64,000 bases of DNA from an uncultured bacterium. GTDB taxonomy: Bacteria; Patescibacteriota; Minisyncoccia; Phycocordibacterales; GWA1-40-21. Position 1 is the first letter of the stretch. Each line of letters starts with the position of its first letter. The DNA lies in assembly GCA_903822075.1 (NCBI GenBank), contig CAIJNK010000011.1:504-64503 (forward strand), written 5' to 3'. The notes under the pieces were generated by a model. That model saw only the letters and a list, made by a program, of their open reading frames with translations, was not told the origin of the DNA and ran no database searches. A program made the position numbers and the translations under genes. This document shows positions 546-30,110 of the stretch, in pieces.

Positions 546-589
546 TTCTTTTAAAATTAAACTATTAAACTAATAAATTAATAAACTTT

Positions 590-961: not shown

Positions 962-964
962 GTG

Positions 965-1010
965 ATTTTACGAAATCATATCGCGCAACCGTCCATTAAA
1001 GCGCGACTCT
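965..1010 (-). promoter_or_regulatory. conserved 5' leader element (copy 2)
   Basis: ACGAAATCATATCGCGCAACCGTCCATTAAAGCGCGAC, about 36/38 identical to copy 1, in the same position relative to the start codon of 590..961. Confidence 0.45.
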
Positions 1011-1095
1011 TTTTTTAATAAACTACGACCTTTTGTTATTTTCTCCGTTAATTATAACTTTTTGAACATAAATGGGCAACTGCGGTATCCACAGT

Positions 1096-1500
1096 TTAAT
1101 CAACAATAGGAGCGACTCCAGCCGGATTGGTACCGCCCGAGCCTCCGCCTGGCGCCACAATCCTCACAGTTCTAGCGGTATTATCGAGATTAAAAGTATT
1201 TGACACGATTGCCACCAGACCCCAGACAGAGACCATTACAAAAATACCAACTATCCCCCATAACATGTATTGTTTACCCTCCTCCTTTTTCTCACCGCCT
1301 TCTGACAACATAAGTAACAATACACCATATACAAATACTACTACCGCCAAGCCAACCAAAAGTGGTACTAGCGGTCTCAATATGCCGTTAATAAAAACAT
1401 CATTCACCACCGCCTTGAAATTCTCGGGGGCGGCAAAAACTGGCAAGGCAAAAATGGTCAGAAGTATAGTGGAAATGAGATAAATGTTTTTTTTCATCAT
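1096..1500 (-). CDS. small membrane protein, TrbC/VirB2 pilin-like (paralog)
   Basis: 134 aa; signal peptide, two TM segments, second TM motif YMLWGIVGIFVMVSVWGLVAIV related to the first two paralogs; Gly-rich C-terminal tail. Confidence 0.45.
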   Translation of the reverse strand: MMKKNIYLISTILLTIFALPVFAAPENFKAVVNDVFINGILRPLVPLLVGLAVVVFVYGVLLLMLSEGGEKKEEGKQYMLWGIVGIFVMVSVWGLVAIVSNTFNLDNTARTVRIVAPGGGSGGTNPAGVAPIVD

Positions 1501-1527
1501 ATTTTGATTAATTAATAAAATATATTG

Positions 1528-1908
1528 CTAGCTTCTGCCTACAGTGGTATTAACGGTATTAATTACGACATTGGCAATAACATCGGCGCCTAAAAGGATA
1601 GCCCCACCTATAATGGTGGCATAAAAAATTTCTTTAGCCTTTGTCACCTCACTTTCATTACCTCTGGCCGTCACAAACTTGTAACCGGAATAGATAATAA
1701 AGAAAACCACGATTATAGCTCCCACCTTGGCCACTAAATCCATAACCAATCCTAAAATTTTCTCAACACTATCATTACCGGGCCCTAAAGGATTCTGAAT
1801 GGTTGTGTCGCCACCAACCTGGGCGTGGGCCAGAAAAATTGGAAGCAGAATAACCAAACTGAATGAAACAATAAACCCGGCGATTTTTTTATAATTTAAT
1901 TTAAGCAT
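1528..1908 (-). CDS. small membrane protein, pilin-like (divergent member of the array)
   Basis: 126 aa; signal peptide (LAHAQ), two hydrophobic segments, same size class and tandem position. Confidence 0.35.
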   Translation of the reverse strand: MLKLNYKKIAGFIVSFSLVILLPIFLAHAQVGGDTTIQNPLGPGNDSVEKILGLVMDLVAKVGAIIVVFFIIYSGYKFVTARGNESEVTKAKEIFYATIIGGAILLGADVIANVVINTVNTTVGRS

Positions 1909-1922
1909 TATGAATGAATATG

Positions 1923-2330
1923 TTACTTTATAAATTTAAAGATTAAACTATTTTTGTCCGGAACCAGACTAATCAGAATAGTGTAGACTATCAGCCAAGA
2001 TATCAGAATTATTACAAATCCCTTGAGGGTACTCCACAGGACGTCCTTGGCTTTTTCCTTGTTGCCAGGATTCTCACCAGAAATAATCCAAAGGAACCCA
2101 CCATAAATAAAGGAGATGGTGAATATGACGCCGGCAATACTGATTATCCAATTAATGATACGATTTATGGTCCCAATAGCATCCGCAAACTTACATTCGT
2201 GAGTCGTGGCAGTGCCACACTGAATAAGCGGAGTGTAGTCCAAAGCAGAAGCGATTGCCGGGACAATGAAGATAGCCAACAGAGCTAGAGATAAACTGCC
2301 AGCCAATACTTTTTTTGTTTTTAAAGTCAT
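1923..2330 (-). CDS. small membrane protein, pilin-like (divergent member of the array)
   Basis: 135 aa; signal peptide (AIASAL), Cys pair in the mature N-terminus, two TM segments. Its start overlaps the stop of 2327..3673 by 4 nt, implying an operon. Confidence 0.35.
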   Translation of the reverse strand: MTLKTKKVLAGSLSLALLAIFIVPAIASALDYTPLIQCGTATTHECKFADAIGTINRIINWIISIAGVIFTISFIYGGFLWIISGENPGNKEKAKDVLWSTLKGFVIILISWLIVYTILISLVPDKNSLIFKFIK

Positions 2331-8404: not shown

Positions 8405-8537
8405 GTTATTTTTACCAATATAATGTATACTATGCCAGTTATTAGTTCACAAGAAGTAACACCCTTGGCGCCTGTGGCCGATGGACCTTTTTGGCGAAGT
8501 TCGCGCCAAATGTGCGCGATTTTTTTATCAAAAATTT

Positions 8538-9674
8538 ATGGCAAAAAAAGCAAAAGTAATAGACGAGACAACAGCAGAAGAAAAGGCTCTCAAGCTCAAG
8601 AAAGACAGCTTGATGACCAAGATTGTAGACAAGAGCGTGACTCCCCCAAACGTCGGTGACGTGGTGGAGGGTGACGTGATTGGCGTGGAGAAATCCTGCG
8701 TTTATATAAACTTGAACCCTTATGGAACAGGTATTATTTTCGGCAAGGAATTCATCAACGCTCGTGATATTATCAAGAAGATAAACATTGGTGACAAAGT
8801 GGCCGCCAAAGTAGTGGACAACGGTGAAGGCAATAAAGATGGTTATATTGAACTCTCTCTCAAGGAAGCTAGACAAGCTCTGATCTGGGATGAAGCTGAA
8901 GCAGCCATCAAGAACAAAACTGTTTTGGAATTGCCGGTAGAAGAAGCCAACAAGGGCGGTTTGATTATCAACTGGCAAGGTATCAAGGGTTTCCTCCCCG
9001 CTTCCCAACTTCGAACCGAGCACTATCCCAGGATCAATGACGGTGACAAGGATAAGATCTTGGACGAATTGAAAAAATTGGTGGGGCAGAAGATTTCCGT
9101 GGCCATCATTACCGCACTGCCTAAGGAAGGCAAGCTGATTTTCTCCGAGAAGAATATTGAGAAGAAAGGTAAGCAAAAAATGACCGATAAATACAAAGTT
9201 GGAGATATCTGCGGCGGTGAAATCACCGGTATCGTGGACTTTGGTATCTTTGTAAAGATTGAGGACGGTTTGGAAGGACTGGTACACATTTCTGAGATTG
9301 ATTGGACTTTGGTGGAAAACCCTCGTGCCTTTTATAAGGTTGGTGAGAAAGTCCAGGTGAAAGTGATTGAAGTGAAGGACGGCAAGATTTCTCTCTCCAT
9401 CAAAGCCCTCAAGGAAAACCCTTGGGTGGAAGCGGAGAAGAAATATAAAAAAGGTGATGAAGTCCAAGGTGTGGTCATCAAATTCAACAAGCATGGCGCC
9501 TTGGCCTCGATTGAGGAAGGTATCTCCGGCTTGGTTCATATCTCCGAATTTGGTTCCGAACTCAAGATGAAGGAAAAGTTGGAGCTTGGTAAGAGTTATA
9601 CTTTCAAAATCCTCCTCTTCGAATCAAAGAATCAGAAGATGGGTTTGTCATTCGTTGATTCTGTAAAGAAATAA
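8538..9674 (+). CDS. rpsA: 30S ribosomal protein S1 (short, four S1 domains)
   Basis: Four repeated S1 domains (GDVVEGDVIGVEK..., GGLIINWQGIKGFLP..., GDICGGEITGIVDFGIFVKI..., GDEVQGVVIKFNKHGALASI...). Start moved to the internal ATG (MAKKAKVIDE); the track ORF begins 19 codons earlier at 8481. Confidence 0.85.
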   Translation: MAKKAKVIDETTAEEKALKLKKDSLMTKIVDKSVTPPNVGDVVEGDVIGVEKSCVYINLNPYGTGIIFGKEFINARDIIKKINIGDKVAAKVVDNGEGNKDGYIELSLKEARQALIWDEAEAAIKNKTVLELPVEEANKGGLIINWQGIKGFLPASQLRTEHYPRINDGDKDKILDELKKLVGQKISVAIITALPKEGKLIFSEKNIEKKGKQKMTDKYKVGDICGGEITGIVDFGIFVKIEDGLEGLVHISEIDWTLVENPRAFYKVGEKVQVKVIEVKDGKISLSIKALKENPWVEAEKKYKKGDEVQGVVIKFNKHGALASIEEGISGLVHISEFGSELKMKEKLELGKSYTFKILLFESKNQKMGLSFVDSVKK

Positions 9675-16416: not shown

Positions 16417-17616
16417 TTAGTAGTTCTGCAATCTATTTATCTTCCCATGCACCCTTATCTTTTCGTGCGCTTTAGCCTCAATCTGGCGGATACGCTCACG
16501 AGTAACGCCAAACTCTTTACCCACTTCTTCCAAAGTATGGGTAATGCCATCAATCAAGCCGTGACGCATTTCTAATATTTTTCTTTCTTTCAGTGAAAGA
16601 TCGGAAAGGATTTCCTTAACCTGATCTCCCAAGATTCGGCGGGAACTTTCCTGATCCGGCGACAATATTTTATCATCCGCCACAAAATCACCCAAGGTAG
16701 ATTTTCCGTCATCACCATCATCCCCCACCGGCGTTTCCAACGACACGGTATCTTGATCGATCTTTTCAATATTATAAACTTTCTCAATCTCAATCCCCAT
16801 CTCGGTCGCAATTTCCTCAGGTAAAGGATCTCGGCCCAAGTCCTGAGACAGTCTCCGCACACACTGTTTGTACTTGGCAATAGTCTCCACCATGTGTACC
16901 GGCACGCGAATAGTTCGGCTCTGATCGGCCAAAGCTCTGGTGATAGCCTGTCTAATCCACCAAGTAGCGTAAGTAGAAAACTTGTAACCCTTGGTCCAGT
17001 CAAATTTATCCACGGCCTTGAACAAACCGAGGTTTCCTTCTTGAATCAAATCAAGTAACGTCAGATCAGCACTTCGGCCCACATATTTCTTGGCAATGGA
17101 TACCACCAAACGCAAGTTGGCCCTAGCCAAGAGATTTTTCGCTTCTTCATCACCCACCTGAATCTTACGGGCTAAATCTTTTTCCATCGTCGCGGAAATC
17201 AGTGGGTACTGACCAATCTCTTTCAAATACATCTGAATAGAGTCGTAGGAAGAGTCACCAGTTCGGCCGCCAAAGGCGTACTTCTTCAAAGTTTCTTCTT
17301 CTTTTTCGATGTCGAGCATTCCACCGCCCTCAAGCACATCCACGCCGGTAGTGGATAAACGATTATACAAATCGTCCAAAAATACCACATCTGTCTCAAT
17401 GTTTGGAAACTCTTTCAAGATTTCATCATAAGTGACAAAACCTCTCTCCCGACCCTTAGCCAAGAGTCTTGAAGTCTTGATCTCCTGCTCCTTTTTCTTG
17501 TCCATCCCAGTTTTCTTGATTGGCTTGGCGGATACCTTTTTAATCTTTTTAACTGGACTCTTTTTTACCGCCTTCTTAGCTGACTTTTTTACTTTTTTGG
17601 TTATTTTTTTCTTCAT
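16417..17616 (-). CDS. rpoD: RNA polymerase sigma factor RpoD (sigma-70)
   Basis: 399 aa; lysine-rich N-terminus; regions 1.2, 2 (DLIQEGNLGLFKAVDKFD...YATWWIRQAITRA), 3 and 4 (helix-turn-helix LEEVGKEFGVTRERIRQIE). Confidence 0.95.
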   Translation of the reverse strand: MKKKITKKVKKSAKKAVKKSPVKKIKKVSAKPIKKTGMDKKKEQEIKTSRLLAKGRERGFVTYDEILKEFPNIETDVVFLDDLYNRLSTTGVDVLEGGGMLDIEKEEETLKKYAFGGRTGDSSYDSIQMYLKEIGQYPLISATMEKDLARKIQVGDEEAKNLLARANLRLVVSIAKKYVGRSADLTLLDLIQEGNLGLFKAVDKFDWTKGYKFSTYATWWIRQAITRALADQSRTIRVPVHMVETIAKYKQCVRRLSQDLGRDPLPEEIATEMGIEIEKVYNIEKIDQDTVSLETPVGDDGDDGKSTLGDFVADDKILSPDQESSRRILGDQVKEILSDLSLKERKILEMRHGLIDGITHTLEEVGKEFGVTRERIRQIEAKAHEKIRVHGKINRLQNY

Positions 17617-17620
17617 TGTT

Positions 17621-19333
17621 TTATTTAAGTTTAGCTAATCTTTTGGTAAGTTCGTTACACAACCCAGCCATTATATCACGTTTTTTTAAATCTTTTTCTT
17701 TCTCGGCTTTGATCATCTCACTCATTGTCCGCGCCAATTCTCGTTTGACATATTCTTTTTCCAGTTCCATTAAGAGCTCGTCGAGTACCGCCTGAATCTT
17801 CTTTTTCTCATAATACTGCTCAGCTTCAAAAATCGCTTCATTTATCACCTGGACTGGCGCCGTCTCCCACTTTTTAAAATTCTCCCCACCAATGATTTCT
17901 CGTACCTTCTGTTTCGATGTCTGAATATCGATCAGTTTTTCCGTGTCTTTCTCTTGCCAGCCAATGACCCCCAATACTCGCCGTTCAATGGAATCCACCC
18001 GGTCTATAGCTGTCTTATTATCAAAATTACCGCTTTTTGTACCAACACCATCCACACCCGGCTCCACTTTTACTTTTTTCAAATCTTCCCAAATAGCCGC
18101 CTCGCTGATGCCAGTCTTCTCTGCAATCTTTTTTACAAAATGTGATTTCTCAATACTACTTTCAATGATTGCCAAAAAGGGCAGTATTTTCTCCTGCACC
18201 TCCTTACCGAGTTTTCTTGGTTCTAATTTTTCAGCTAAGATTTTCGCTAAGTAAAAATCAATAATATGCATGGAATCTTTGAGCGCCTCTTTGAATTTTT
18301 CCTTGCCATCCGTACTCAAAATCACATCTGCCGGATCTTTGCCATCCTTAAATTCAGCAATTTTTACTTCCATACCTAAGGACAATGCCAACTGCCAGGC
18401 TTTGGTAGCTGCCGCAAAACCGGCCTTATCCGCATCAAAAGCCATAATCACTCTGTTTGATATTCTTCTAAGAAGTGTGAGATGTTCTGGAGTTAGGGCT
18501 GTGCCGGAAGTAGCCACCACATTTTGAAAGCCCGCCTGATGACACATAATAATATCCATTTGTCCTTCCACAATCACTGAATAATCAAATTTCTTGATGG
18601 CAAGTTTAGCCAAATCAAAACCATAAAGAATCCGTGATTTGTTGAACACCGCCGTTTCCGGAGAGTTCAAATATTTGGCGCTTTTGCCATCGTCATTTTC
18701 CGGCAAAATTCGCCCGGTAAACGCCACCACTCGGCCGGCGCTATCTCGAATCGGAAACATAATCCGACCTCGAAAGCGGTCATAAAAACTGCGCTCATTT
18801 CTCTTAATCAAACCTGCTTGTTCTATTTCACTGTCAGAAAATTTTCGGGCGGCCAGATAATCATAAAGCGTACGCCAATCATCAGCCACAAAACCAATTC
18901 GCCAATCTTTGATAGTCTTTTCTGTTAAGCCTCTTTTTTCCAAATATTTTACGGCACTATTTGATTTAGGTAAATTAGATTCAAAGAATTGGGTGGCGGC
19001 TTCGAGTGCATTAAATATCGCCTCCTTTTCATCTTTCTTTTCAAAATCGGTTCGCTCCAAAGTCACGCCCGTTCTTTCCGCCAAGAGTTTCAAGGCGCCA
19101 AAAAAGTCCAAACCTTCAAACTCCTGCACAAAAGTAAAAATATCACCTTTTGCGCCACAGCCGAAACAATAATAAGAATCCCGATCCGGCGATACAAAAA
19201 AGCTCGGCGTCTTCTCATTATGAAACGGGCACCTGGCTTTCATATTCTTCCCTGCTTTCTCTAATTTTATATATGTACCCAAAAGATCCACAATATTCAG
19301 CCTCTCTTTTATTTTTTCTACGGGGGTGCTCAT
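17621..19333 (-). CDS. dnaG: DNA primase
   Basis: 570 aa; zinc-binding domain (CPFHNEKTPSFFV...YCFGCGAKGD), TOPRIM (VIVEGQMD...AFDADKAG). Conserved dnaG-rpoD order. Confidence 0.9.
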   Translation of the reverse strand: MSTPVEKIKERLNIVDLLGTYIKLEKAGKNMKARCPFHNEKTPSFFVSPDRDSYYCFGCGAKGDIFTFVQEFEGLDFFGALKLLAERTGVTLERTDFEKKDEKEAIFNALEAATQFFESNLPKSNSAVKYLEKRGLTEKTIKDWRIGFVADDWRTLYDYLAARKFSDSEIEQAGLIKRNERSFYDRFRGRIMFPIRDSAGRVVAFTGRILPENDDGKSAKYLNSPETAVFNKSRILYGFDLAKLAIKKFDYSVIVEGQMDIIMCHQAGFQNVVATSGTALTPEHLTLLRRISNRVIMAFDADKAGFAAATKAWQLALSLGMEVKIAEFKDGKDPADVILSTDGKEKFKEALKDSMHIIDFYLAKILAEKLEPRKLGKEVQEKILPFLAIIESSIEKSHFVKKIAEKTGISEAAIWEDLKKVKVEPGVDGVGTKSGNFDNKTAIDRVDSIERRVLGVIGWQEKDTEKLIDIQTSKQKVREIIGGENFKKWETAPVQVINEAIFEAEQYYEKKKIQAVLDELLMELEKEYVKRELARTMSEMIKAEKEKDLKKRDIMAGLCNELTKRLAKLK

Positions 19334-19336: not shown

Positions 19337-20485
19337 TTAATTTGTACACTTTCTAGCCAAAGCCGGGCAGGCAATATTTGCACCAGCGTTTGGCAACTCG
19401 CAGTTATTGTTATCCACCGCCATCATGCCTTGATAACCGTTATTGCATGCTCCCCAACCGCAAATCCAGTTTGACGTGCAGGAAGTAGTAGTGGCTTGAT
19501 CTAAAACACACTTATGATTTATACATCTATTAGCCGGAAATAGTGGCCCGCCACCAGGACCGGCGCCTATAAGCTGTGGGCAATCAGTATCAACTTTGCA
19601 TTGTAAAGCTGGTGTTGAAATCGGAGCTAAGACCTTAAACGTCTTCACAATATTCACCGCCTCCTCCCCGCCCAAGGCATCGGTAAAACCCCACCAGCGT
19701 GGTGGCGTGGCAAAAATATAATTCTGATTTTCTCCCACTTCACCGGGACCAACCGGCGCGGCGCTCACGGCGACCTTTTCCGCTGAAATAAGTTTCCAAA
19801 CATCTGGCGTGATAATCATAAGCGGAATATCCTGCCAAGGTTGGCTCGGCGTGGACTGCGGATTTTTAAAGATTAATTTTGTCCCAGTGTAAGTAGTAGT
19901 GCCATCAATTAGCCATCCAGTCCAAGTACTTTTAACCACGGTATACCCCCTCCATGAAGCCGGAAATTGCATGGTAAAACCATATTCTGTATTGGTGTAA
20001 GTTTCCACCGAGAAAATTGGTGTTAATAATTGGGCCGATTTTAATGAATCCTCAAGGGCAAATACTTGCGTGTAAGCATAATCTAAAACCTTTGGATCTA
20101 GCGAGCAGGGGTTGGTGGATCGAAGATAAAAGATGTTTTTATCACCGATAGTTATAATGGCTGAAATTTCATCGTTATTAAGTATCGTTGTGGTACTGGT
20201 ATTGCGTAAAAAGATACTCCCTAATGAATCAGTGTCTGCACGACAAACATCTCCTCCCATTTTTATTAGAGATTTTGAAGTAAAGCCCACACTTTTCGAG
20301 TCAGTGTTATAATTATATGTCAGGTCTTCTATTCTGGATGAAAGAGGTATTCCAATCCCAAGTTCTTTTATTTGAAGAAAGTTTAAAGGTGCTTCTACCC
20401 TCTTATTTTGGCAGATAAACATGACTCCGATTATTAGGATAATGATGACTATAATTATGAAGAGAAAAGTTTTTTTATTTTTCAT
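19337..20485 (-). CDS. membrane-anchored exported protein with Cys-rich C-terminal domain (paralog of 25672..26826)
   Basis: Start moved to internal ATG (MKNKKTFLFIIIVIIIL...). N-terminal anchor ending NKRVEAP, shared motif YTNTEYGFTMQFPASW, and a C-terminal region with more than 12 Cys. Confidence 0.45.
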   Translation of the reverse strand: MKNKKTFLFIIIVIIILIIGVMFICQNKRVEAPLNFLQIKELGIGIPLSSRIEDLTYNYNTDSKSVGFTSKSLIKMGGDVCRADTDSLGSIFLRNTSTTTILNNDEISAIITIGDKNIFYLRSTNPCSLDPKVLDYAYTQVFALEDSLKSAQLLTPIFSVETYTNTEYGFTMQFPASWRGYTVVKSTWTGWLIDGTTTYTGTKLIFKNPQSTPSQPWQDIPLMIITPDVWKLISAEKVAVSAAPVGPGEVGENQNYIFATPPRWWGFTDALGGEEAVNIVKTFKVLAPISTPALQCKVDTDCPQLIGAGPGGGPLFPANRCINHKCVLDQATTTSCTSNWICGWGACNNGYQGMMAVDNNNCELPNAGANIACPALARKCTN

Positions 20486-21545
20486 GATTTTTTTTCTTCT
20501 TGACGGCTGATAAAATCTTTTTAACTTCCCGATCAAAATCCGAAATATAATTTTTATCCTGCTCCACCTTGTATTTTTCATACTCTTTGAAAGCCAAGGC
20601 AAGAGCCACCTCATGACTTATTTTACCGGCGTTTGTCAATATTTCATACTCGCTAAATTTCAGGAAGGCATTAAGCTTAATGACCCAATCTTTCATCGTC
20701 ATTGCCTTACCCCTGGCCGCCTGCATCTCGGCGTAATCCAAATACATATTTCCGATCCGATTCAAATGTTCCAATTCTTTTTTATCTAAATAATTCTTGG
20801 CAATTATCGTATCGCTTGGCATTATTTTCCCTTCCGGCGAACGTCTCCAGGAAGTTAGCCCCATTTTTTCTTTCTTGCTACTTACCCTGTCTGTTATAAT
20901 TTCCGCCGCCGTCTTTCCGGTAATGGCAAAATGCAGTTTATTCTGAACTGTGGCAAAAAATTCCTTGCTCTCACTTGCCTTTGCTGAATAATCAATTGAG
21001 GTGGCATAAATATCCGTAATCTTCTGATAAATCATTCGCTCACTGGTGCGAATATCTTTTATTTCTTCGTATAATTCATCAAAATATCTGGTACTGAAAC
21101 GAGAACCGTATTTCATCCTATTTGTATCCAAAGCATAACCCTTGTGAATGTAATTTTTCAAAATCCCCGTCGCCCATTGCCTAAACTGCGTACCTCTTTC
21201 GGAATTTACCCTATAACCCACGGCGATAATGGCTTCTAATGAATACATCTGGGATTTTCTCTCGACTTCTCTTTCTCCTTCCGTTTGAACTTGTAAGAAA
21301 TCCTTACAAGTTGAATTTAGGCTGACTTCCTTTTCTGAATAAAGAGTTTTCAGATGTTGAGTAATATTTTGAGGAGTAGTCTCAAATAATTCAGCCATTC
21401 TCCTCTGGGTTATCCAAATATTTTCATCAGCATATACCACTTCAATATTCACCGAACCGTCCGGTGATTGATAGAATGATATTTGATTATCTGGTATTTT
21501 TTTCATATTCAATCTCTCTTTTATTTTTTCTACAGGTGTGGACAT
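20475..21545 (-). CDS. RhuM-family protein (virulence-associated / RM-associated DNA-binding family), carrying a duplicated dnaG N-terminal peptide
   Basis: 356 aa; RhuM-family signature (ISFYQSPDGSVNIEVVYADENIWITQRRMAELFETTPQNITQHLKTLY). First 13 aa (MSTPVEKIKERLN) are identical to the dnaG N-terminus; the real start may be the internal MKKIPDNQ. Confidence 0.7.
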   Translation of the reverse strand: MSTPVEKIKERLNMKKIPDNQISFYQSPDGSVNIEVVYADENIWITQRRMAELFETTPQNITQHLKTLYSEKEVSLNSTCKDFLQVQTEGEREVERKSQMYSLEAIIAVGYRVNSERGTQFRQWATGILKNYIHKGYALDTNRMKYGSRFSTRYFDELYEEIKDIRTSERMIYQKITDIYATSIDYSAKASESKEFFATVQNKLHFAITGKTAAEIITDRVSSKKEKMGLTSWRRSPEGKIMPSDTIIAKNYLDKKELEHLNRIGNMYLDYAEMQAARGKAMTMKDWVIKLNAFLKFSEYEILTNAGKISHEVALALAFKEYEKYKVEQDKNYISDFDREVKKILSAVKKKKNHEK

Positions 21546-21560: not shown

Positions 21561-21821
21561 CTAATTAATTAATCCTTTACTATTCAAACAATCTTTATAC
21601 CAAAAATCAGCCTTCTCCTGTTCTGCTTTATTAATTTTAATCATATCATTACCCAACTCTTCCTTTTCGATATCACTCGTTAAATCCAACCTACTTTCAG
21701 AAACATATTTTTTACATTCTTTTCTAATATTTGATGGCCTTAACTGAAACCAATAAAAAATACACACTAAAATAGCTAGAATTAATATAATTACATATTT
21801 AAATTCTTTTATTTTTTCCAT
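21561..21821 (-). CDS. small membrane-anchored hypothetical protein
   Basis: 86 aa; single N-terminal TM (YVIILILAILVCIFYWF), charged C-terminal part. Confidence 0.3.
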   Translation of the reverse strand: MEKIKEFKYVIILILAILVCIFYWFQLRPSNIRKECKKYVSESRLDLTSDIEKEELGNDMIKINKAEQEKADFWYKDCLNSKGLIN

Positions 21822-21967
21822 ATTTTTTTAATTAGATTAATAAACAATCCAATTATAGCACCTTTGGACTGGAAACCCCTCCTATTCTTAGGAGGGGTCG
21901 CCATTCCGATGGCGGGGGTGGTTCTCTTCCCCTCCTTAGTTAAGGAGGGGTTAGGGGCGGTTGTGTT

Positions 21968-24900
21968 TTACTCCCCTCTTTCCGCATTCAATTCCTTCAT
22001 GAATTCAGCCACCATTTTGAACTTAGGAGAATCTGGATGACCGGTACCGGCTGGAATAAGTCTACCGATGATAACGTTTTCCTTCAATCCGGTCAGATGG
22101 TCAACGGAACCGCGAACAGCGTTATTAATCAAAACTCGGTTAGTGTGCTGGAACGAAGCAGCGGAGAGGAATGATCGACGAGCGAGTGAAGCTTCGGTGA
22201 TACCCATCACTACCGGCTCTGCTTTCATCACCATCTTACCATTAGCCTCGGCTTCCTCATTTTCCAAACGATAATCCAATTCATCAATCACATCGCCTTC
22301 AGACACGGTGGTCTCACCTGGGTTCTTCACTTTCATTCGGGAGAACATCTGCTTCACGATGATTTCAATATGCTTTCGGGACACGGCCTCTCCTTGTAAT
22401 TCGTAAAGTTTGTTCACTTCCGTAATCACATAGTTCATGGTCTTCTCCTTGCCACCATATTTGAACAGTTCATCAATATCAGCCGAACCATCGGTCAAAA
22501 GCTGACCTTTCTTTACCTTATCACCAGTCTTCACCAAAGCCACGCGCTTGAAGCTGAATTCATATTCCACTTCGGCCGCCTTCTTACCCTTGGCTTTATC
22601 TTCAATTTCCGGCAAAACAGTAATGATTTTTTCCTTACCCATATCTTTTACCGAAGTCACCACACCGTCACACTTTGACACCATGGCTGGGCTCTTTGGC
22701 TTTCTCTTTTCAAAGACTTCTTCCACACGAGGCAAACCTTGAGTAATATCTCCACCAACGGAGGCAGTACCTCCAGAGTGGAAAGTACGCATCGTCAGCT
22801 GAGTACCAGGCTCTCCAATAGCTTGAGCGGCCACGGTTCCCACGGCTTCACCAAGACCAATAAGTTCTCCACGGCCCAAGTCTGAGCCATAACATTCTGC
22901 GCACACGCCGTGAACGGTTTTACAGGTCAAAGGTGAGCGCACGTAAACTTCATTGGCGCCCTCGGCTTCCACTTTCTGCGCTTCATCTTTCTTTAGCAAA
23001 TGTCCTTTCTTGAATAGCACTTCACCCGTCTTGCTCAAAACATCGGCGGCCAAAATTCTACCGCGAATATGCTTGGACACGGAAACACCTGATTCAAATT
23101 CACTGCTGTTTTTGATACAGATGCTTTCCTTGGTCTTACAATCCGCTTCGGTAATAACAATATCTTGCGCGACATCAAACAATCTTCGGGTCAAATATCC
23201 GGCCTTGGCGGTGTTAAGCGCGGTATCGGTCAAACCTTTTCGCGAACCGTGAGTGGTAATAAAGTATTCGATCGGAGTCAAACCTTCCTTCATGGAACCG
23301 ATAACCGGGAACTCAATGGTCTCACCGGCGGTATTCTGAATCAAACCTTTCATACCGGCCATCTGAGTAATAGCACCAAGCGAACCTCGAGCACCAGACA
23401 CCCACATATCGGAAACGGAACCGTTGATATCCAAAGTTTTTGGAATCAATTTTTCCAACTCGTTCTTGGCACCGTGCCAGATCTCAATATTTTTTCGTAA
23501 TTTTTCTTCGTCGGTCAAAAGTCCTTCGTTGAAGAAATTCAAAACCTCAGCGGATTTTCTCTTAGCTTCAGCAATAACTTCTGGCTTCTCGACTGGAATA
23601 TTCAAGTCATCAAGACCCCAAGTTACACCGGAAGCGGTGGCATATTTGAAACCAAAAGCTTTTATCTTGTCGAGCACCTTTGGAATATTAGTAATGCCAT
23701 ATTTGTTGATCAAATCATCAAGAATAGCCGACATGGTTTTCTTGGTGATTTCCTTGTTCACATAAGAATAATCGGAAGGCAAAGTGGAATTGAAGAGCAA
23801 TCGTCCGACCGTTGTCTCAAATGTCTTACCGCCAAAAATTTGATATTTTGGCTTATCGGTTCCCAGAACATGAATCTTGGCGCGAATGGAAATGCCACCA
23901 AAATCATAAGTAGTAATGGCGCTGTTTGGAGAAGAAAAATATTTACCCTCGCCCAATTCACCCGGCACATCTTTGGTCATCCAATAACAACCAAGCACGA
24001 TATCCAAAAGCTTGGCGGAGACGGTCAATTCGCCGTTTCCTGGCTTCAGGATGTTTTTGTCCGAAGCCATAATTTCATGAGCTTCGATTTGTGCTTCCTC
24101 ACCCAATGGTACGTGAACAGCCATCTGGTCTCCATCGAAGTCCGCGTTGAAAGCGGTACAAACAAGTGGGTGAACCTGAATAGCGGAACCTTCTATGAGC
24201 ACCGGCTTGAAAGCCTGAATACCCAAACGGTGCAAAGTAGGCGCACGGTTCAAGAGCACATATTTATTCTCAATAATTTCTTCAAGAATGGCCCACACTT
24301 CTGGAATTCCATCGTCAATCAAACGGCCGGCACCACGAATGTTGAAAGCTAATTCTTTCTTTAATAATTCAGAAATAACAAACGGTCGGAAAAGTTCCAA
24401 GGCCATCATTTTTGGCAAACCGCATTGGTTCAACTTTAATTCCGGACCGACAACGATCACCGAACGGCCTGAGTAGTCCACGCGCTTTCCAAGGAGGTTA
24501 GCACGGAACAAACCACGCTTACCCTTTAGGTTATCAGCGAGTGATTTCAAGGCGCGCTTCTGAGAATTTCCCACCGCGGAAAAAGCATCATTACCGCTTC
24601 GAATCGAGTTATCAATCAAAGAGTCCACCGCTTCCTGCAAAATTCTTTTTTCGTTTCGCAAAATAACTTCCGGCGCGTGAATTTCCTTCAATTTCAACAA
24701 ACGATTGTTTCGGTTTATCACTCGGCGGTAAAGATCGTTCACATCGGACGTAGCATAACGGCCTCCGTCTAATGGTACCATTGGTCGAAGCGCTGGTGGA
24801 ATAACTGGCACGCGAGTCAGGAACATCCATTCCGGCTTCACGTTAGCTTCTCTCATTGAACGCACCAAGGAAATTCTCTTGTTTACTTTTTCTCTTTCCA

Positions 24901-25642
24901 AAGAACCGGCTTTTTCCAACTGCACTTCCAATTTCTTTTCCAAGTCCACCAAATCCAAATTTTTCAAAATATCAAATATCGCCTCGGCACCGATGGATGC
25001 CTCAAACAAGGAACCATATTTCATGGAATACTTGTGATACATAACCTCGTCCACCACCACGCCTTCGCGGATGCTTTCCACTTCTTTCTTGGCATTGATC
25101 AAAAGTTCTTTCAAAGCCTCCTTGGTTTTTTCATCCTGGACGGTTTTGACTTTCTGCTTGAACTCATTATCAATGTCATGAAGAATTCTTTCTCGCTCAG
25201 CCTCATGAGTAACTGTGATGATGTAGCCGGCAAAATAAATCACTTTCTCCAAATCGGCAGTAGTCATACCGAGCATGGTTCCAATTTTTGATGGAATACC
25301 GCGCAAGAACCAGATATGAGAAACGGGAGACGCCAATTCGATGTGTCCCATCCTCTCACGTCGTACTATTGAGCGGGTAATCTCCACGCCGCATTTTTCA
25401 CAGATAATTCCCTTATAGCGAATACCTTTGTATTTACCGCAATAACACTCAAAGTCTTTGTCCGGACCAAATATTTTTTCATCAAACAAACCGCTCTTTT
25501 CCGAACGCTGAGTTCGATAGTTAATGGTTTCCGGCCTCGTGACTTCACCAAAAGACCAGCCTTTGATGACTTCCGGTGAAGCGACTTTTAGCGAGATGGC
25601 ATCAAAATCATTGAACTCAACATTTTTATTTTTATTATTCAT
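21968..25642 (-). CDS. rpoC: DNA-directed RNA polymerase subunit beta'
   Basis: 1224 aa; zinc-binding CYCGKYKGIRYKGIICEKCGVE, NADFDGDQMAVHVP catalytic loop, bridge helix and trigger loop regions. Confidence 0.95.
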   Translation of the reverse strand: MNNKNKNVEFNDFDAISLKVASPEVIKGWSFGEVTRPETINYRTQRSEKSGLFDEKIFGPDKDFECYCGKYKGIRYKGIICEKCGVEITRSIVRRERMGHIELASPVSHIWFLRGIPSKIGTMLGMTTADLEKVIYFAGYIITVTHEAERERILHDIDNEFKQKVKTVQDEKTKEALKELLINAKKEVESIREGVVVDEVMYHKYSMKYGSLFEASIGAEAIFDILKNLDLVDLEKKLEVQLEKAGSLEREKVNKRISLVRSMREANVKPEWMFLTRVPVIPPALRPMVPLDGGRYATSDVNDLYRRVINRNNRLLKLKEIHAPEVILRNEKRILQEAVDSLIDNSIRSGNDAFSAVGNSQKRALKSLADNLKGKRGLFRANLLGKRVDYSGRSVIVVGPELKLNQCGLPKMMALELFRPFVISELLKKELAFNIRGAGRLIDDGIPEVWAILEEIIENKYVLLNRAPTLHRLGIQAFKPVLIEGSAIQVHPLVCTAFNADFDGDQMAVHVPLGEEAQIEAHEIMASDKNILKPGNGELTVSAKLLDIVLGCYWMTKDVPGELGEGKYFSSPNSAITTYDFGGISIRAKIHVLGTDKPKYQIFGGKTFETTVGRLLFNSTLPSDYSYVNKEITKKTMSAILDDLINKYGITNIPKVLDKIKAFGFKYATASGVTWGLDDLNIPVEKPEVIAEAKRKSAEVLNFFNEGLLTDEEKLRKNIEIWHGAKNELEKLIPKTLDINGSVSDMWVSGARGSLGAITQMAGMKGLIQNTAGETIEFPVIGSMKEGLTPIEYFITTHGSRKGLTDTALNTAKAGYLTRRLFDVAQDIVITEADCKTKESICIKNSSEFESGVSVSKHIRGRILAADVLSKTGEVLFKKGHLLKKDEAQKVEAEGANEVYVRSPLTCKTVHGVCAECYGSDLGRGELIGLGEAVGTVAAQAIGEPGTQLTMRTFHSGGTASVGGDITQGLPRVEEVFEKRKPKSPAMVSKCDGVVTSVKDMGKEKIITVLPEIEDKAKGKKAAEVEYEFSFKRVALVKTGDKVKKGQLLTDGSADIDELFKYGGKEKTMNYVITEVNKLYELQGEAVSRKHIEIIVKQMFSRMKVKNPGETTVSEGDVIDELDYRLENEEAEANGKMVMKAEPVVMGITEASLARRSFLSAASFQHTNRVLINNAVRGSVDHLTGLKENVIIGRLIPAGTGHPDSPKFKMVAEFMKELNAERGE

Positions 25643-25671
25643 ATTTTTGTTATTTTAATGATTTTGATAAA

Positions 25672-26826
25672 TTAATTTGTAACTGTGAAAGGATAATCGC
25701 TGTCGTCCATCGGGGCTGGATAAGACTGGGCAGCAGACGGAGAAACTCTTATTATATATTGTCCGGCATCAATTCTTCTTCCGCCAGGACCCTTGTCAGT
25801 TGGAATCCACCAATTAGACTGCAAACGATTCACACTAACGAGAGACTCAAGATTATAAACTAAAGTTCCATCGGGCTTCAGTAGATTAATTTCCAAAGTT
25901 GAATTAATATTCTTTGCCTGCCATTTAATATCAACGGTATCACCCTTTTTATATGTTTCTCCTCCATTTGGTGAAAGAACAGTTATAGATGGTTGAGTTG
26001 ATGTAGAGGTAAATTTAAAGCTTGAGCTAACTATTTTAAATATATCTTTATAGCCAGCATCAGATACCCAAATGTTCATTGCAAGATTCCCCTTCGTTAT
26101 CATTTTAACATTAGGGTTATTCTGTCCAGCACTAGTATTAGTAGAACCATTGTAGTCACTACGAAGTTGTAGACCAACAACTTTATTTAATTCCACTCCA
26201 TTCGCAGCGTCAGAACTACTAGAGGGATAGTAGACTGACAAATCAGCTATCATGCTTCCCTGGCAGCAATCATCATATATTTTAGCATTTGCCGGATATT
26301 GAAACGAAAAACCATATTGAGTACTTGTATATGTTTTCCAATTTGAAGTAGCGTTTAATCCAGGAGAAGTAGTATTCATCACCCTAACACTAGTACTTGC
26401 GGTGGTCTGTGCACCAGTACTGTCTTTGGCAGTGAACACAAGAGTATATGTTCCGAATTGCGAATAAGCATGAGTGAATGGTGGATTTTGAGTGTAAATA
26501 GTATTAGAATCACCCCATTTTTCCGAGTACGTTAAAGTACTACCCTCTCCCTTATCATTAGGACTATAAGCATTGACTGTCCATGTGCCTAGTTGGTTCA
26601 GAACTAATTCCTGTGGTCCATTCACTTTTAGTACCAGAGATTTATTATTAGTAACTGACGGATTTTGAGTACTTGTCTGTTGTTGATTTTGGTTTTGCTG
26701 GTTTTGGACAACTGGTGCTTCAACTTTCTTATTTGTGTAAATATAAACACCACCACCAATTATTAAGATGGCGATTATGCCAATGAGGAGTGGGATGATA
26801 AAACCTTTTTTATTATTTGTTTTCAT
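25672..26826 (-). CDS. membrane-anchored exported protein (paralog of 19337..20485), inserted between rpoB and rpoC
   Basis: 384 aa; N-terminal anchor ending NKKVEAP, Q/N-rich linker, shared motif YTSTQYGFSFQYPANA, beta-rich Ig-like C-terminal region. Confidence 0.45.
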   Translation of the reverse strand: MKTNNKKGFIIPLLIGIIAILIIGGGVYIYTNKKVEAPVVQNQQNQNQQQTSTQNPSVTNNKSLVLKVNGPQELVLNQLGTWTVNAYSPNDKGEGSTLTYSEKWGDSNTIYTQNPPFTHAYSQFGTYTLVFTAKDSTGAQTTASTSVRVMNTTSPGLNATSNWKTYTSTQYGFSFQYPANAKIYDDCCQGSMIADLSVYYPSSSSDAANGVELNKVVGLQLRSDYNGSTNTSAGQNNPNVKMITKGNLAMNIWVSDAGYKDIFKIVSSSFKFTSTSTQPSITVLSPNGGETYKKGDTVDIKWQAKNINSTLEINLLKPDGTLVYNLESLVSVNRLQSNWWIPTDKGPGGRRIDAGQYIIRVSPSAAQSYPAPMDDSDYPFTVTN

Positions 26827-26918
26827 GATTTTGTTTTTTCCTCTTTCCTTCCCCTTTCTCCTCCTTTTCTAAGGAGGAGTACCCGAGTCTTCGAGGGGGA
26901 GGTGGTGAGGTGGTTTTT

Positions 26919-29900
26919 TTATCTCTCTCCACCTTCGTAAGTTGAAGGTTTCTTATCCTTTAAGAGTTCAACGTCGAGCCCTAATCCTCTCAAGTTGTTG
27001 AGAAGCACGTTAAACGAAGCCGGAATATTCGGTTGCTTGATGCGCTCACCTTTCACAATAGAATCGAAAGCGGCGGAACGTCCCACAATATCATCTGATT
27101 TGATAGTTAACATTTCTCGAAGCGTATAAGCGGCACCATGTCCAAGCAAGGCCCAGACTTCCATTTCTCCAAATCTCTGTCCTCCTCCTTGTGCACGTCC
27201 ACCAAGAGGTTGCTGCGTAATCATGGAGTATGGTCCGATTGAGCGCATGTGAATCTTGTCTTCCACTTCATGGTGCAGTTTCAAGATATACATATAACCC
27301 ACAGCCACTTCTTGCTGGAAGCTTTCACCGGTTCGTCCATCACAAAGTTTCATCTTACCGCTTTCCTTAAAACCAGCCTTTACCAATTCCGCTTTGATTT
27401 CCTGATCGGTGGCACCTGCAAACGGAGGAACAATGGCTTGATAATTCAAAGTATTTGCTGCAAGACCTAAGTGTAATTCCATAATCTGTCCCAAGTTCAT
27501 ACGAGAAGGCACACCAAGCGGAGTCAAAATCATATCCACTGGTCGGCCGTCTGGCATGTATGGCATATCTTCTTCCGGCAACACTTTGGAAATAACTCCT
27601 TTGTTTCCGTGACGTCCGGACAGCTTGTCTCCCACGGAGATACTTCTGAGTTCCGCCACTTCAATATGAATTCTCTTTATAATTCCACTTTCCAATTTAT
27701 CGCCTTTCTCGCGAGAAAACACTTTTACCGAAACAATACGGCCTTTCTTTCCACCTTCCAATCTCTTGGAAGTATCTTTCACATCACGGGCTTTCTCACC
27801 AAAGATAGAACGAAGTAATCTTTCCTCTGGCGTTAACTGAGTCTCACCTTTGGGCGTAATTTTACCGACGATAATATCACCAGGGCGAACTTCCGCGCCG
27901 ACGCGGACAATTCCGTCCTCATCCAGGTTTTTTAGTTTAGCCTCACCAACGTTTGGAATATCGTGAGTAGTTACTTCCGGTCCAAGCTTGGTATCGCGAA
28001 CATTCACCACAAACTCTTCCATGTGAATGGATGTAAACTTGCTGTCCTTCACCAGTTTTTCGGACAAAATAATAGCGTCCTCATAGTTTGATCCGGACCA
28101 AGACATGAAGGCAATCAAAATGTTTTGACCAATAGAAGTCTGGCCCTTATCGGAAGAAGAGGTATCGGCGAGCAGTTCGCCTTTTTTGACTTTCTGTCCC
28201 AAGGAAACCACTGGTCGCTGATGGAAAACGGTAAAGCTGTTTGTTCGAGAAAACTGGATCAGATTATATTCCGCTTCTTTTTCTTTATCATTGGTAATTT
28301 TAATCTTTTTAGAATCCAAGTAAGTCACTTCACCGGCTTCGTCAGCGTAAATAAGACGTCCGGTATCTCTTGCGGCAATTTCCTCAATACCAGTAGCAAC
28401 AAGCGGAGCTTCCGGCCGCAAACATGGCACGGCTTGTTTCTGCATGTTCGAACCCATGAGTGCGCGGTTGGCATCATCGTGGTTCAAGAAAGGAATCATG
28501 GAGGTAGCAATAGAAAAAGCCTGATTAGTGGCAACGTCCATAAAGTCCACATCCTCGCTCTTAACGACAGTCGGAACACCGTTCACACGCACCTCCACTT
28601 CTTCATCAATTATTTTTCCATTGACGTCGACGTGGGTGGCGGCATGGGCAATCTTAAAGTTTTCCTCTTCCAAGGCGTTCAAATATTTTATTTCGGGGGT
28701 GATCACGCCATGCTTGACCTTGGCGTAAGGAGTTTCGATCATACCAAAATCATTTACCTTAGCGTAAACAGAAAGACGCAAGATCAAACCAATGTTCGGT
28801 CCTTCTGGGGTATGGATAGGACAAACGCGGCCATAGTGAGAAGGATGAACGTCACGAACCTCGAAGCCGGCACGCTCGCGAGTCAGACCACCGGGTCCGA
28901 GTGCGGATAAAGTTCTCAAGTGTTCCACCTCTTGGAGGATGTTTTCCTGAGCCATAAACTGCGACAACTGGTTTGTAGTAAAGAATTCCTTGATTCTAGC
29001 TTGCAGTGGACGAGGGGAAATGAAGTTTACCGGCATAGTGATGTCCGGATCCACAGTGGACATACGATCTTGAATATTTCTCTTCATCTGAGACATACCA
29101 ATCCTCACTTTAGCCTGAAACAATTCACCAACAAAACGGACGCGGCGAGAACCCAAGTGATCAATATCATCTTCCACGGCATCTTCGTCGTGATTTAAAG
29201 TGACTATGTTACCAATGATAGTGAAAACATCATCCAGGTTTATGGTCTTGCGATCAAGCTCCTTAACATCCATACTCTTACTGAATCTTTTGTTGAAACG
29301 GAAACGTCCCACCTTGGAAACGTCATAACGGTCAGCGCTAAAAATACCGTTAATAAATTCCCGGGCGTTCTCAGCGGTAGCTAGATCACCGTCACGCAAT
29401 CTCTTGTAAATCTCCACGTAGGAATCATCCAGGGTCTTGGCATGATCCTTGGCCAAGTTTAGCTCCATGGCTTTCTTTGAAGCCTCATCCGTAGTAAAAT
29501 ACTCCATCATTTGCTTGTCGGTTGCGCCCAAAACGCGCAAAAGCGAAGTGACGGGGAATTTTCTCTTTTTATCAATCTTAACATAAACCAAATCATCAGC
29601 ATCGGACTCGATTTCAATCCAAGCTCCGCGTGATGGGATTATTTTGGCGCCAAAATAACGCTTACCCTTAATTTCATTAGTGGTGAAAAACATACCAAAG
29701 GAGCGGGCCAACTGTGGCACAATGACTCTTTCAATACCATTGATGATGAAAGTGCCGTGGTCCGTCATGAGAGGAATATCGGTCAGAAAGATTTCCTGCT
29801 CTTTCTCGGTATTTAAAATTTTATTCTTCAGTTTGACCCGGGCCTTTAGTTGACCTTCGTAGGACATTTTATTGTCCTTGGCGTAGTGCTCATTATATTT

Positions 29901-30110
29901 AGGCTGATCAATCTCAAAAGCCGTAAAAGAGAGCTCAAACTTTTTCTCGGCATAGTCCTTTATAGGAGAGAACTCCTTAAAAACCTCCGCCAAACCTTTC
30001 TCCAGGAACCATTTGAAAGATTCCGTCTGGTGGCTGACCATGTTTGGCGGGGTGACAAGCGGAGCCTTGAACTTTCCGAAATATTTTTTTTCTCTTTTGA
30101 TTGATTTCAT
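26919..30110 (-). CDS. rpoB: DNA-directed RNA polymerase subunit beta
   Basis: 1063 aa; conserved beta-subunit blocks (GPGGLTRERAGFEVRDVH, NMQKQAVP, ILKLHHEVEDKIHMRSIGPYS). Confidence 0.95.
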   Translation of the reverse strand: MKSIKREKKYFGKFKAPLVTPPNMVSHQTESFKWFLEKGLAEVFKEFSPIKDYAEKKFELSFTAFEIDQPKYNEHYAKDNKMSYEGQLKARVKLKNKILNTEKEQEIFLTDIPLMTDHGTFIINGIERVIVPQLARSFGMFFTTNEIKGKRYFGAKIIPSRGAWIEIESDADDLVYVKIDKKRKFPVTSLLRVLGATDKQMMEYFTTDEASKKAMELNLAKDHAKTLDDSYVEIYKRLRDGDLATAENAREFINGIFSADRYDVSKVGRFRFNKRFSKSMDVKELDRKTINLDDVFTIIGNIVTLNHDEDAVEDDIDHLGSRRVRFVGELFQAKVRIGMSQMKRNIQDRMSTVDPDITMPVNFISPRPLQARIKEFFTTNQLSQFMAQENILQEVEHLRTLSALGPGGLTRERAGFEVRDVHPSHYGRVCPIHTPEGPNIGLILRLSVYAKVNDFGMIETPYAKVKHGVITPEIKYLNALEEENFKIAHAATHVDVNGKIIDEEVEVRVNGVPTVVKSEDVDFMDVATNQAFSIATSMIPFLNHDDANRALMGSNMQKQAVPCLRPEAPLVATGIEEIAARDTGRLIYADEAGEVTYLDSKKIKITNDKEKEAEYNLIQFSRTNSFTVFHQRPVVSLGQKVKKGELLADTSSSDKGQTSIGQNILIAFMSWSGSNYEDAIILSEKLVKDSKFTSIHMEEFVVNVRDTKLGPEVTTHDIPNVGEAKLKNLDEDGIVRVGAEVRPGDIIVGKITPKGETQLTPEERLLRSIFGEKARDVKDTSKRLEGGKKGRIVSVKVFSREKGDKLESGIIKRIHIEVAELRSISVGDKLSGRHGNKGVISKVLPEEDMPYMPDGRPVDMILTPLGVPSRMNLGQIMELHLGLAANTLNYQAIVPPFAGATDQEIKAELVKAGFKESGKMKLCDGRTGESFQQEVAVGYMYILKLHHEVEDKIHMRSIGPYSMITQQPLGGRAQGGGQRFGEMEVWALLGHGAAYTLREMLTIKSDDIVGRSAAFDSIVKGERIKQPNIPASFNVLLNNLRGLGLDVELLKDKKPSTYEGGER

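Follow-up and report, generated by a model that had tools for sequence, protein, structure and literature searches.

A rhuM gene behind a duplicated dnaG start in the rpoC-dnaG gap of a Patescibacteria chromosome

Introduction

How did a gene of the RhuM family come to begin with the first codons of dnaG, the gene for DNA primase? The question is raised by a 64-kb stretch of Patescibacteria (Paceibacteria-like) chromosome (contig CAIJNK010000011.1), called the window below, where a block of genes that includes rhuM lies just ahead of dnaG within the conserved gene order rpoB-rpoC-dnaG-rpoD. The original prediction for this DNA had read the block as an accessory element integrated into the dnaG start. 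Our analysis makes it somewhat probable that rhuM entered by homology-driven recombination with DNA of a related species. Loci and proteins used for comparison are denoted by L and P numbers, respectively.

Duplication of the dnaG start

In the window, rhuM and dnaG are both on the minus strand and open with the identical 13 residues, MSTPVEKIKERLN. The features concerned are as follows.

17621..19333, minus strand: dnaG (primase), intact; zinc ribbon, catalytic core and Toprim all found by Pfam
19295..19333, minus strand: functional dnaG start, codons 1-13, the second repeat copy; Pfam Zn_ribbon_DnaG aligns from residue 4
20475..21506, minus strand: rhuM proper, 343 amino acids (aa) from MKKIPDNQ; Pfam PF13310, 8.5e-104; PADLOC PDC-S05, 4.8e-140
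21507..21545, minus strand: displaced dnaG codons 1-13, fused in frame to rhuM; allele TCC ACA CCT ... AGA TTG

The dnaG open reading frame (ORF) encodes 570 aa with the N-terminus MSTPVEKIKERLNIVDLLG, and the rhuM ORF (20475..21545) encodes 356 aa with the N-terminus MSTPVEKIKERLN-MKKIPDNQ. The starts of the two 39-nucleotide (nt) copies are 2212 nt apart, in agreement with the 2.2 kb of the original prediction. Two further bases match, giving a repeat of 41 nt with 85% identity (19293-19333 and 21505-21545); the similarity ends just 5′ of the ATG on one side and 2 bases beyond codon 13, at rhuM's own ATG, on the other. The differences had been put at about 6 nt, all synonymous. The alignment gave exactly 6 mismatches, 6 of 6 synonymous, in codons 2 (AGC/TCC, 2 nt, a serine codon switch), 3 (ACC/ACA), 4 (CCC/CCT), 11 (AGG/AGA) and 12 (CTG/TTG). 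The mismatches flank both sides of an identical 20-nt core, GTAGAAAAAATAAAAGAGAG (19302-19321 and 21514-21533).

Similarity by chance is excluded, because BLAST between the copies within the locus gave an E-value of about 1e-7 and only 9 of 200,000 random-substitution trials kept the peptide. An assembly artefact is excluded because the locus is 100% identical across both junctions in two further public assemblies (L099 and L100).

The downstream ORF is a complete primase, with the CHC2 zinc ribbon, the catalytic core, the Toprim domain and an N-terminus that relatives share; its identity to DnaG of the closer relatives is 74-91%. Every close relative with a dnaG start available has the N-terminus MST[PS]VEKIKERL, with the third-position variation typical of a translated region. 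The 119 other best RhuM homologues, with 79-87% identity over 92-98% of the query, all begin at MKKIPDNQ or a few residues before it, which agrees with the earlier placing of the RhuM homology proper, and none of them (0 of 119) has the DnaG prefix. Thus neither of two findings that would speak against a dnaG origin, unrelated DnaG N-termini in relatives or a prefix common among RhuM proteins, was made. Because relatives share this DnaG N-terminus and RhuM homologues lack the prefix, the comparison identifies the prefix as the native conserved N-terminus of DnaG, derived from dnaG. The ORFs and domains likewise bear out an intact dnaG and an in-frame fusion of the displaced copy with rhuM.

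The public gene call for the DnaG of the window (P0121, 556 aa) is 14 residues shorter and would start at the GTG of codon 15 (19292-19333 region). To judge from the Pfam alignment and from relatives, in which residues 1-14 are conserved, the true start is the ATG at 19333 and not that of P0121.

Some relatives have an intein in DnaG after the zinc-ribbon motif YYCFGC (L010, 6726-9581; proteins P0187 and P0199), giving proteins of 951-969 aa with a precomputed match to PF14528 (intein-associated). It is another selfish insertion in the same gene. An apparent dnaG duplication in L010, found by tblastn, was rejected as a repeat; it is this intein.

Divergence of the copies

The pattern of differences was compared with that of a second pair, in the related locus L009, where rhuM also follows a 5′ remnant of dnaG. 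The window pair has 6 substitutions and no amino-acid change, a result matched by random placement of the substitutions in 9 of 200,000 trials. The L009 pair has 10 substitutions and one amino-acid change (G19S), matched in 0 of 200,000 trials, and both states of G19S are found in genuine DnaGs. The synonymous divergence (pS) is about 0.5 in both pairs. Each copy, including the allele of the displaced copy, is within the range of genuine dnaG starts of other species.

This combination of high synonymous divergence and almost no amino-acid change argues for recombination with DNA from a related genome. Each copy would have had its history as a functional primase start in a genome of its own, and the two would have been united recently, one of them having come with foreign DNA. 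The duplicated start that the original prediction described thus stands, with the modification that the copies behave as alleles from two different genomes.

The same pattern rules out a decaying target-site duplication for the window, for L009 and for L091 (see below), because a duplication starts identical and its spare copy should then gain amino-acid changes and indels. The remnant in L106, described next, has the appearance of an older one.

Recurrence of the arrangement

In two further lineages (L009/L052 and L106/L107), rhuM lies in the rpoC-dnaG gap, each time directly behind a dnaG 5′ remnant. The order in L009/L052 is rpoC, a leader, dnaG codons 1-23, rhuM, a gene for an exported 187-aa protein, and dnaG. 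The remnant in L009 is a mini-ORF of 24 codons, whose stop TGA overlaps the rhuM ATG; L052 is from a different sample than L009. The order in L106/L107 is rpoC, a leader, a gene for a Cys-rich 170-aa protein, a decayed dnaG remnant, rhuM, genes for a PsbP-like protein, a KilA-N protein and a Cys-rich 128-aa protein, and dnaG. The L106 remnant (ATCTACATCAGTTGAAAAAAGAGAAAAT) has lost its ATG and has two small deletions, yet a stretch of 19 nt matches the dnaG start of L004 exactly. The KilA-N protein matches PADLOC PDC-S22, so that the L106 gap holds two defence candidates, PDC-S05 and PDC-S22.

The junction AATAT/GAAAAAAATACC is common to the window and L106, and L009 is 32 nt longer. The junction position is the same (AATAT/G) in two of the three possibly independent occurrences. 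The three dnaG-linked RhuMs were among each other's nearest relatives in our sample, in a star-like tree. Among 80 further metagenome rhuM loci, one had dnaG-like sequence 5′ of rhuM, and that one was from the L009 organism.

The arrangement is found at another gene in L091, from a GC-rich host, where rhuM lies beside a DNA methylase gene. Here codons 1-9 (MALHPSFPT) of an unrelated downstream gene are duplicated ahead of rhuM; the copies have three differences, all three synonymous, and the TGA of a mini-ORF again overlaps the rhuM ATG. When the 200 nt upstream of rhuM were compared with the 2.5 kb downstream, flanking direct repeats of at least 28 bits were seen at 13 of 65 testable rhuM genes and at 8 of 142 control long ORFs in the same contigs, about a 3.5-fold enrichment. 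In most of the repeat-bearing cases the downstream copy adjoins the start of the next gene. The repeats at these other rhuM loci are mutually unrelated sequences of 14-172 nt and lie 0 to about 100 nt from the rhuM ATG.

A type I restriction-modification locus (L050, 357-6162) carries two tandem, divergent rhuM genes with a chimeric fragment between them, in which hsdR codons ~14-25 run into the final ~14 codons of hsdS. This chimeric junction looks like the mark of a circular or tandem integration intermediate.

Two other observations were made at rhuM loci. The rpoC-dnaG gap of L106 (4460-8001) contains three secreted-protein genes that all encode the signal-peptide N-terminus MKNSQKGFIIPLII; two of them are ~98% identical over ~210 nt at their 5′ ends and the remainder of these genes has diverged, which suggests gene conversion or recombination between these cassette starts. 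In L082 (5816-7335), rhuM lies within a 30-nt direct repeat, just upstream of a tandem glycine riboswitch.

The rpoC-dnaG gap

On the minus strand, the gene order in the window is rpoB (26919-30110), a gene for a 384-aa secreted protein, rpoC, an 86-aa ORF, rhuM, a gene for an exported 382-aa protein, dnaG and rpoD. The features that surround rhuM and dnaG are as follows.

16417..17616, minus strand: rpoD, conserved downstream gene; Pfam match, order kept in relatives
19337..20485, minus strand: ORF for an exported 382-aa protein, with a signal anchor, a middle domain with a YTNTEYGF motif and a Cys-rich C-terminus
21561..21821, minus strand: small86, an 86-aa membrane-anchored accessory ORF; family of ~70-90-aa proteins, 406 matches, N-terminus MEK[IL]K[EQ]YKY
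21822..21967, minus strand: leader 3′ of rpoC, with three GC-rich hairpins, TGCTATAAT (an extended -10-like motif) and an AT-rich stretch; recognised by fold and homology
21968..25642, minus strand: rpoC, conserved upstream flank; 89-95% identity to rpoC of close relatives L002-L012

In eight related loci (L002, L003, L005, L007, L101 and L103-L105), the dnaG start follows the rpoC stop after only ~35-60 nt, so that relatives having dnaG without the insertion, which the original prediction had suggested looking for, do exist. Across close relatives the gap ranges from these 35-60 nt up to about 3.7 kb, with varying gene content. In L004, L006, L008, L011 and L012 it holds one or two small Cys-rich secreted protein genes; a dnaG duplicate was sought in these five gaps and no trace was found. 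Among the compared loci, dnaG remnants were seen in the rhuM-bearing ones only. The gap in the window is 2634 nt and holds the hairpin leader, the 86-aa ORF, rhuM and the exported gene. Since rpoC directly adjoins dnaG in most relatives, the comparison identifies the rhuM block as an insertion into a variable recombination hotspot with co-oriented accessory genes. Differing cassettes lie between the same conserved genes, with no mobility genes, as at hotspots of the minimal-mobile-element type (see Discussion). The guanine-cytosine (GC) content is ~0.29-0.41 over the small ORF and rhuM, compared with ~0.40-0.50 in rpoC and 0.37-0.45 in dnaG.

The hairpins of the leader have the form CCCCTCCT-loop-AGGAGGGG, and its folding energy is -31.5 kcal/mol (z = -5.9). 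It is homologous to the post-rpoC leader of L009 (194-330), with a counterpart at about 4284-4420 in L106. The TATAAT part of TGCTATAAT recurs in L011, L012 and L106. The leader is kept in insertion-bearing relatives, and insertion-free relatives are without it. A scan with consensus promoters and terminators gave counts no higher than expected from shuffled sequence.

No Pfam, PADLOC or NCBIfam match was obtained for small86, and its exact protein, looked up with the aim of finding an empty site, was not on record. We considered whether its start (ATG GAA AAA ATA AAA GAA) might be one more remnant of dnaG, the third and an older one: where 0.04 occurrences of the 15-mer GAAAAAATAAAAGAR would be expected in the window there are three, and the leader upstream aligns with that of L009. 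The candidate was rejected because MEK[IL]K[EQ]YKY is an N-terminus conserved in the small86 family itself. The shared 15-mer is accounted for by the same EKIKE peptide being written in preferred A-rich codons.

The exported gene actually starts with the ATG at 20485, so that it has 11 nt in common with the 3′ end of rhuM; between its stop and the dnaG ATG there are 3 nt. Among proteins with partial homology to its product, P0243 (306 aa) is the closest and has the N-terminal domain and the Cys-rich C-terminus in common with it. The gene for P0243 is the immediate 5′ neighbour of dnaG, likewise at a distance of 3 nt, on the contig of the nearest relative by DnaG (91% identity), and further upstream that contig has an RDD-domain gene in place of rhuM. 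In L102, the same Cys-rich C-terminal domain is encoded 6 nt upstream of dnaG. Because the P0243 gene precedes dnaG in the nearest relative, which has no rhuM, the exported gene is less likely to be cargo of rhuM than a gene that normally adjoins dnaG in the donor and that came in together with the replacement start. The block had been described as a two-gene insertion of rhuM and the exported gene. The insertion itself holds; the extra DNA is larger, 2634 nt with the hairpin leader and the 86-aa ORF, and the exported gene probably belongs with dnaG.

The cluster of the window has a second lineage-specific insertion, between rpoB and rpoC: the gene for the 384-aa secreted protein (PKD, PsbP_2-like; 25672-26826, minus strand), with spacers at 26827-26918 and 25643-25671 and a GC-hairpin leader ahead of it. 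The rpoB-rpoC distance in relatives is only ~30-70 nt. This gene is flanked only by a 9-nt repeat, CAAAATCAT, which is not significant.

Search for mobility genes and element ends

The original prediction had noted that no integrase lies inside the 2.2 kb, and had advised an outward search. This negative result extends to the whole window: a Pfam scan of all ORFs of at least 90 aa in the 64 kb detected no integrase, transposase or resolvase. The scan did find gyrA, gyrB, pheS/T, dnaE, S1, major facilitator superfamily and ATP-binding cassette transporters, five paralogues of type IV secretion system (T4SS) pilins, PIF1 helicase and TelA. Among the gene calls and ORFs seen around rhuM in L009 and L106 there was likewise no recombinase.

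The insert in the window is not bounded by inverted repeats. The repeat copies form no hairpin, folding no better than shuffled sequence (z = +0.3 to +0.5), and no attC-like hairpins were seen. Rfam gave no family in the window and none at the repeats in ten repeat-bearing loci. Thus, of the marks of an integrase-borne island, we found direct repeats with an identical core (20 nt within the 41-nt repeat) and no integrase inside or adjoining the block. As to an integron, there are no IntI integrase and no attC hairpins at the repeat copies. As to a transposon or insertion sequence, there are no transposase and no terminal inverted repeats, the copies differ only synonymously, and the repeat length varies across loci.

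Two side observations concern other parts of the window. The five T4SS pilin paralogues (PF18895; one also matches TrbC/VirB2) lie in tandem at its edge (141-2330, minus strand). Two long ORFs overlap on opposite strands (8442-9539, minus; 8481-9674, plus), with domain support, three S1 RNA-binding domains, on the plus strand only; the minus-strand ORF is probably spurious.

The RhuM protein

The RhuM of the window, whose sequence includes ATGAAAAAAATACC, matches PF13310 with 346.7 bits against a cut-off of 33.7, over model positions 1-249 of 252, so that both the curated threshold and the full length of the model support its membership. The Pfam domain spans residues 78-331 and the PDC-S05 match residues 6-336. 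NCBIfam gave no match for RhuM, the exported protein or small86. A sequence search for a RhuM relative with a solved structure found none, and the AlphaFold model has a mean predicted local distance difference test (pLDDT) score of 44.7, with moderate confidence at most, and only in the N-terminal winged-helix-like part. Only two distant partial matches were obtained when a collection of viral contigs was scanned for close RhuM relatives.

The fused 13 residues are probably incidental to RhuM, because only one lineage of the three has the remnant in frame and because a purine-rich GAGAG lies 7 nt ahead of rhuM's own ATG.

In E. coli B, a PDC-S05 gene with the Virulence_RhuM domain lowered the plating of T7 and T5 ~1000-fold and that of T4 ~10-fold (bioRxiv 10.1101/2024.09.26.614923), and earlier comparative work had proposed a toxin role for the RhuM domain in connection with restriction-modification loci (PMC3710099). 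By analogy, the rhuM of the window, which matches a candidate single-gene anti-phage system, is most likely a defence gene of the anti-phage or toxin type.

Discussion

The explanation we consider somewhat probable, from the comparison of sequences, is a recombinase-free, homology-driven acquisition of rhuM as a promoterless defence cassette from a related species. The incoming DNA, from a related but distinct species, would have carried rhuM, the secreted-protein gene and the donor's own dnaG start. Recombination with the resident dnaG would have taken place in the first ~40 nt of that gene, the crossover most likely falling inside the identical 20-nt core, which fits the differences on both sides of that core. 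In the two simplest routes, a circularised donor segment would have integrated by a single (Campbell-type) crossover, or a transforming strand would have bridged two sister chromosomes. Either would duplicate the homologous piece, leave the primase intact and place the resident start ahead of rhuM. An insertion into an essential gene survives only if a complete copy is restored, and the duplication would do so. The downstream copy heads the intact primase gene, and the upstream copy, directly ahead of rhuM, gives it a putative start codon. Because the block is promoterless and tightly packed (11-nt overlap, 3-nt gap), it is probably co-transcribed and translated with dnaG-rpoD from the TGCTATAAT-type leader after rpoC.

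Published work makes such a route plausible. Saccharibacteria, which are cultivated Patescibacteria, are naturally competent, a property exploited for their genetic manipulation (PMC10633639). In pneumococcus, when an essential gene is hit by a transformed lethal cassette, duplications arise in which one copy stays intact (PMC3784515). From the allele-like divergence of the copies and the competence of Saccharibacteria, we infer that exchange at the hotspot may proceed by DNA uptake and homologous recombination.

A trans-acting site-specific recombinase is the main rival, although we hold it to be unlikely. The block would then be a cis-mobilisable island, integrated by a recombinase of the tyrosine or serine type whose gene lies in another part of the genome or on a helper element, with attB in the first dnaG codons and the two copies as attL and attR. 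Direct repeats with a perfect 20-nt core and diverged arms would be expected of such an island, as would an insertion that restores its target gene, and rhuM does lie at the same gene start in three lineages, two of which (the window and L106) share the junction. Yet no recombinase was found in ORFs of at least 90 aa in the 64 kb or among the gene calls and ORFs seen around rhuM in L009 or L106, the remnant is 13 codons long in one lineage and 23 in another, and the repeats at other rhuM loci are unrelated and of 14-172 nt. The cargo also differs in each lineage, no conserved element ends were found, and close RhuM relatives are essentially missing from viral contigs. The shared junction and the close relationship of the three dnaG-linked RhuMs could also be read as an old local duplication, tandem or unequal, or a single ancient insertion, inherited vertically, in which the remnant was kept because the tag or its translation aids RhuM expression; a 32-nt deletion between AT dinucleotides would turn the L009 form into that of the window, and the fusion in the window is in frame. 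We regard this as unlikely, too. A freed remnant should gain amino-acid changes and indels, as that of L106 has, whereas the window and L009 show a pS of about 0.5 with 0-1 changes. With the remnant in frame in one lineage of three (a mini-ORF in L009, the ATG lost in L106), no common selective role of the peptide is apparent. In addition, insertion-bearing and insertion-free genomes are intermixed when ranked by DnaG similarity.

That rhuM is itself mobile, in the manner of a transposon or homing element that makes staggered cuts and so leaves target-site duplications of variable length, is very unlikely. Its 80-87% identity across very many hosts does imply frequent transfer, and the ~3.5-fold enrichment of flanking direct repeats concerns unrelated targets. 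However, target-site duplications are identical at birth and then decay neutrally, and the differences observed at three loci are almost purely synonymous. Repeat lengths from 14 to >170 nt, repeat positions from 0 to ~100 nt from the rhuM ATG and the additional genes inside the repeats are also against it. Pfam detects no nuclease or transposase domain in RhuM, although the structure prediction is too poor to exclude a novel enzyme, and in published work RhuM is given a toxin or defence role. That strain variants were assembled into a chimera, for which the metagenomic origin of the sequence would speak, is hardly credible given the identical junctions in L099 and L100; analogous arrangements each occur in at least two samples (L009/L052 and L106/L107), and neither collapse nor duplication by an assembler would yield two copies with differences between them.

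Several points weigh against acquisition by homologous recombination. The 20-nt identical core, or even the 39 nt of homology, is short for recombination of the RecA type. The identical junction in the window and L106 could go back to one ancestral event that spread later or to some site-specific process. Possibly the exported gene is resident, a neighbour of dnaG inherited vertically, and only rhuM has moved. A sliding-window and mosaic breakpoint analysis of dnaG against 15 relatives was uninformative, all of these being only ~80% identical, and the relatives include no empty-site or near-identical genome that would identify the donor, the recipient and the breakpoint in dnaG. The flanking-repeat survey was limited to 200 nt upstream of rhuM, and 6% of the control genes were also positive. 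Finally, the defence activity was seen for another member of the family in E. coli, not for the RhuM of the window.

How does the locus compare with known systems? Defence genes are found in hotspots flanked by core genes. The 'minimal mobile elements' of Neisseria are such core-gene hotspots, exchanged by transformation and homologous recombination (PMC3082526, PMC1538595). The rpoC-dnaG gap resembles them in that varied whole-gene cassettes occupy one site between conserved genes without mobility genes, and in its defence cargo (RhuM/PDC-S05 in the window, KilA-N/PDC-S22 in L106). It differs in that the right-hand junction lies inside the coding sequence of an essential flanking gene, the duplicated start of which is reused by the incoming gene. 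Islands specific to dusA integrate at the 5′ end of that housekeeping gene and supply a replacement 5′ end. The window shares with them the 5′-end insertion, a reading frame restored by element-borne sequence and flanking repeats with an identical core, but has no integrase, the length of the remnant and the cargo vary, and the repeats at other rhuM loci are unrelated. Like the cassettes of an integron array, those of the window are promoterless, co-oriented and tightly packed 3′ of one promoter-like leader; unlike them, they come with no IntI and no attC-type hairpin, and the repeat copies are unstructured.

In Campbell-type insertion-duplication and in transformation merodiploidy (Johnston et al. 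2013, PMC3784515), as here, a homologous segment lies on both sides of the insert, and a hit in an essential gene survives through one intact copy. Those are laboratory events of kilobases to hundreds of kilobases; the present case is a natural, fixed arrangement with a duplication of 39-69 nt between diverged species alleles. As for the RhuM family itself, the protein of the window is a full-length, high-scoring match to PDC-S05, members of which are found in defence contexts and restriction-modification loci (L050, L091; PMC3710099). It differs from other members by its 13-residue tag derived from DnaG and by its place within the rpoBC-dnaG-rpoD cluster instead of a restriction-modification operon. 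The locus is thus best filed with core-gene-flanked recombination hotspots and insertion-duplication, the defence gene being the cargo. Of the integrated accessory element of the original prediction, an insertion with a duplicated and replaced dnaG start remains; in place of a discrete element of the integrase type, we see a hotspot with varied cargo.

For Patescibacteria, with their tiny genomes and few recognisable mobile elements, yet clearly mobile defence genes, the locus offers what would be a sequence-level footprint of the entry of a defence gene, without an integrase, into the cluster of genes for RNA polymerase, primase and sigma factor, the best conserved region of such a genome. 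Three things would make up the footprint: recombination within the first codons of a gene that is essential, the rescue of this gene by a duplication, and reuse of the spare start for translation of the newcomer. Allele-like pairs of this kind, with synonymous differences only and an identical core between them, may be usable as a genome-wide marker of recent recombination between species and of its junctions. We suggest, as a tentative possibility that we rate rather low, that rhuM (PDC-S05) and similar accessory genes of Patescibacteria travel as 'homology-addressed' cassettes with the short start of a conserved gene as their sole attachment site, looping out between the copies and re-entering wherever that gene exists, the upstream copy taking on the allele of the new host with each transfer. 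If so, defence genes would have a general way of moving without a recombinase, or with one not yet recognised, in which the incoming gene is automatically given a translation start and the target gene is protected.

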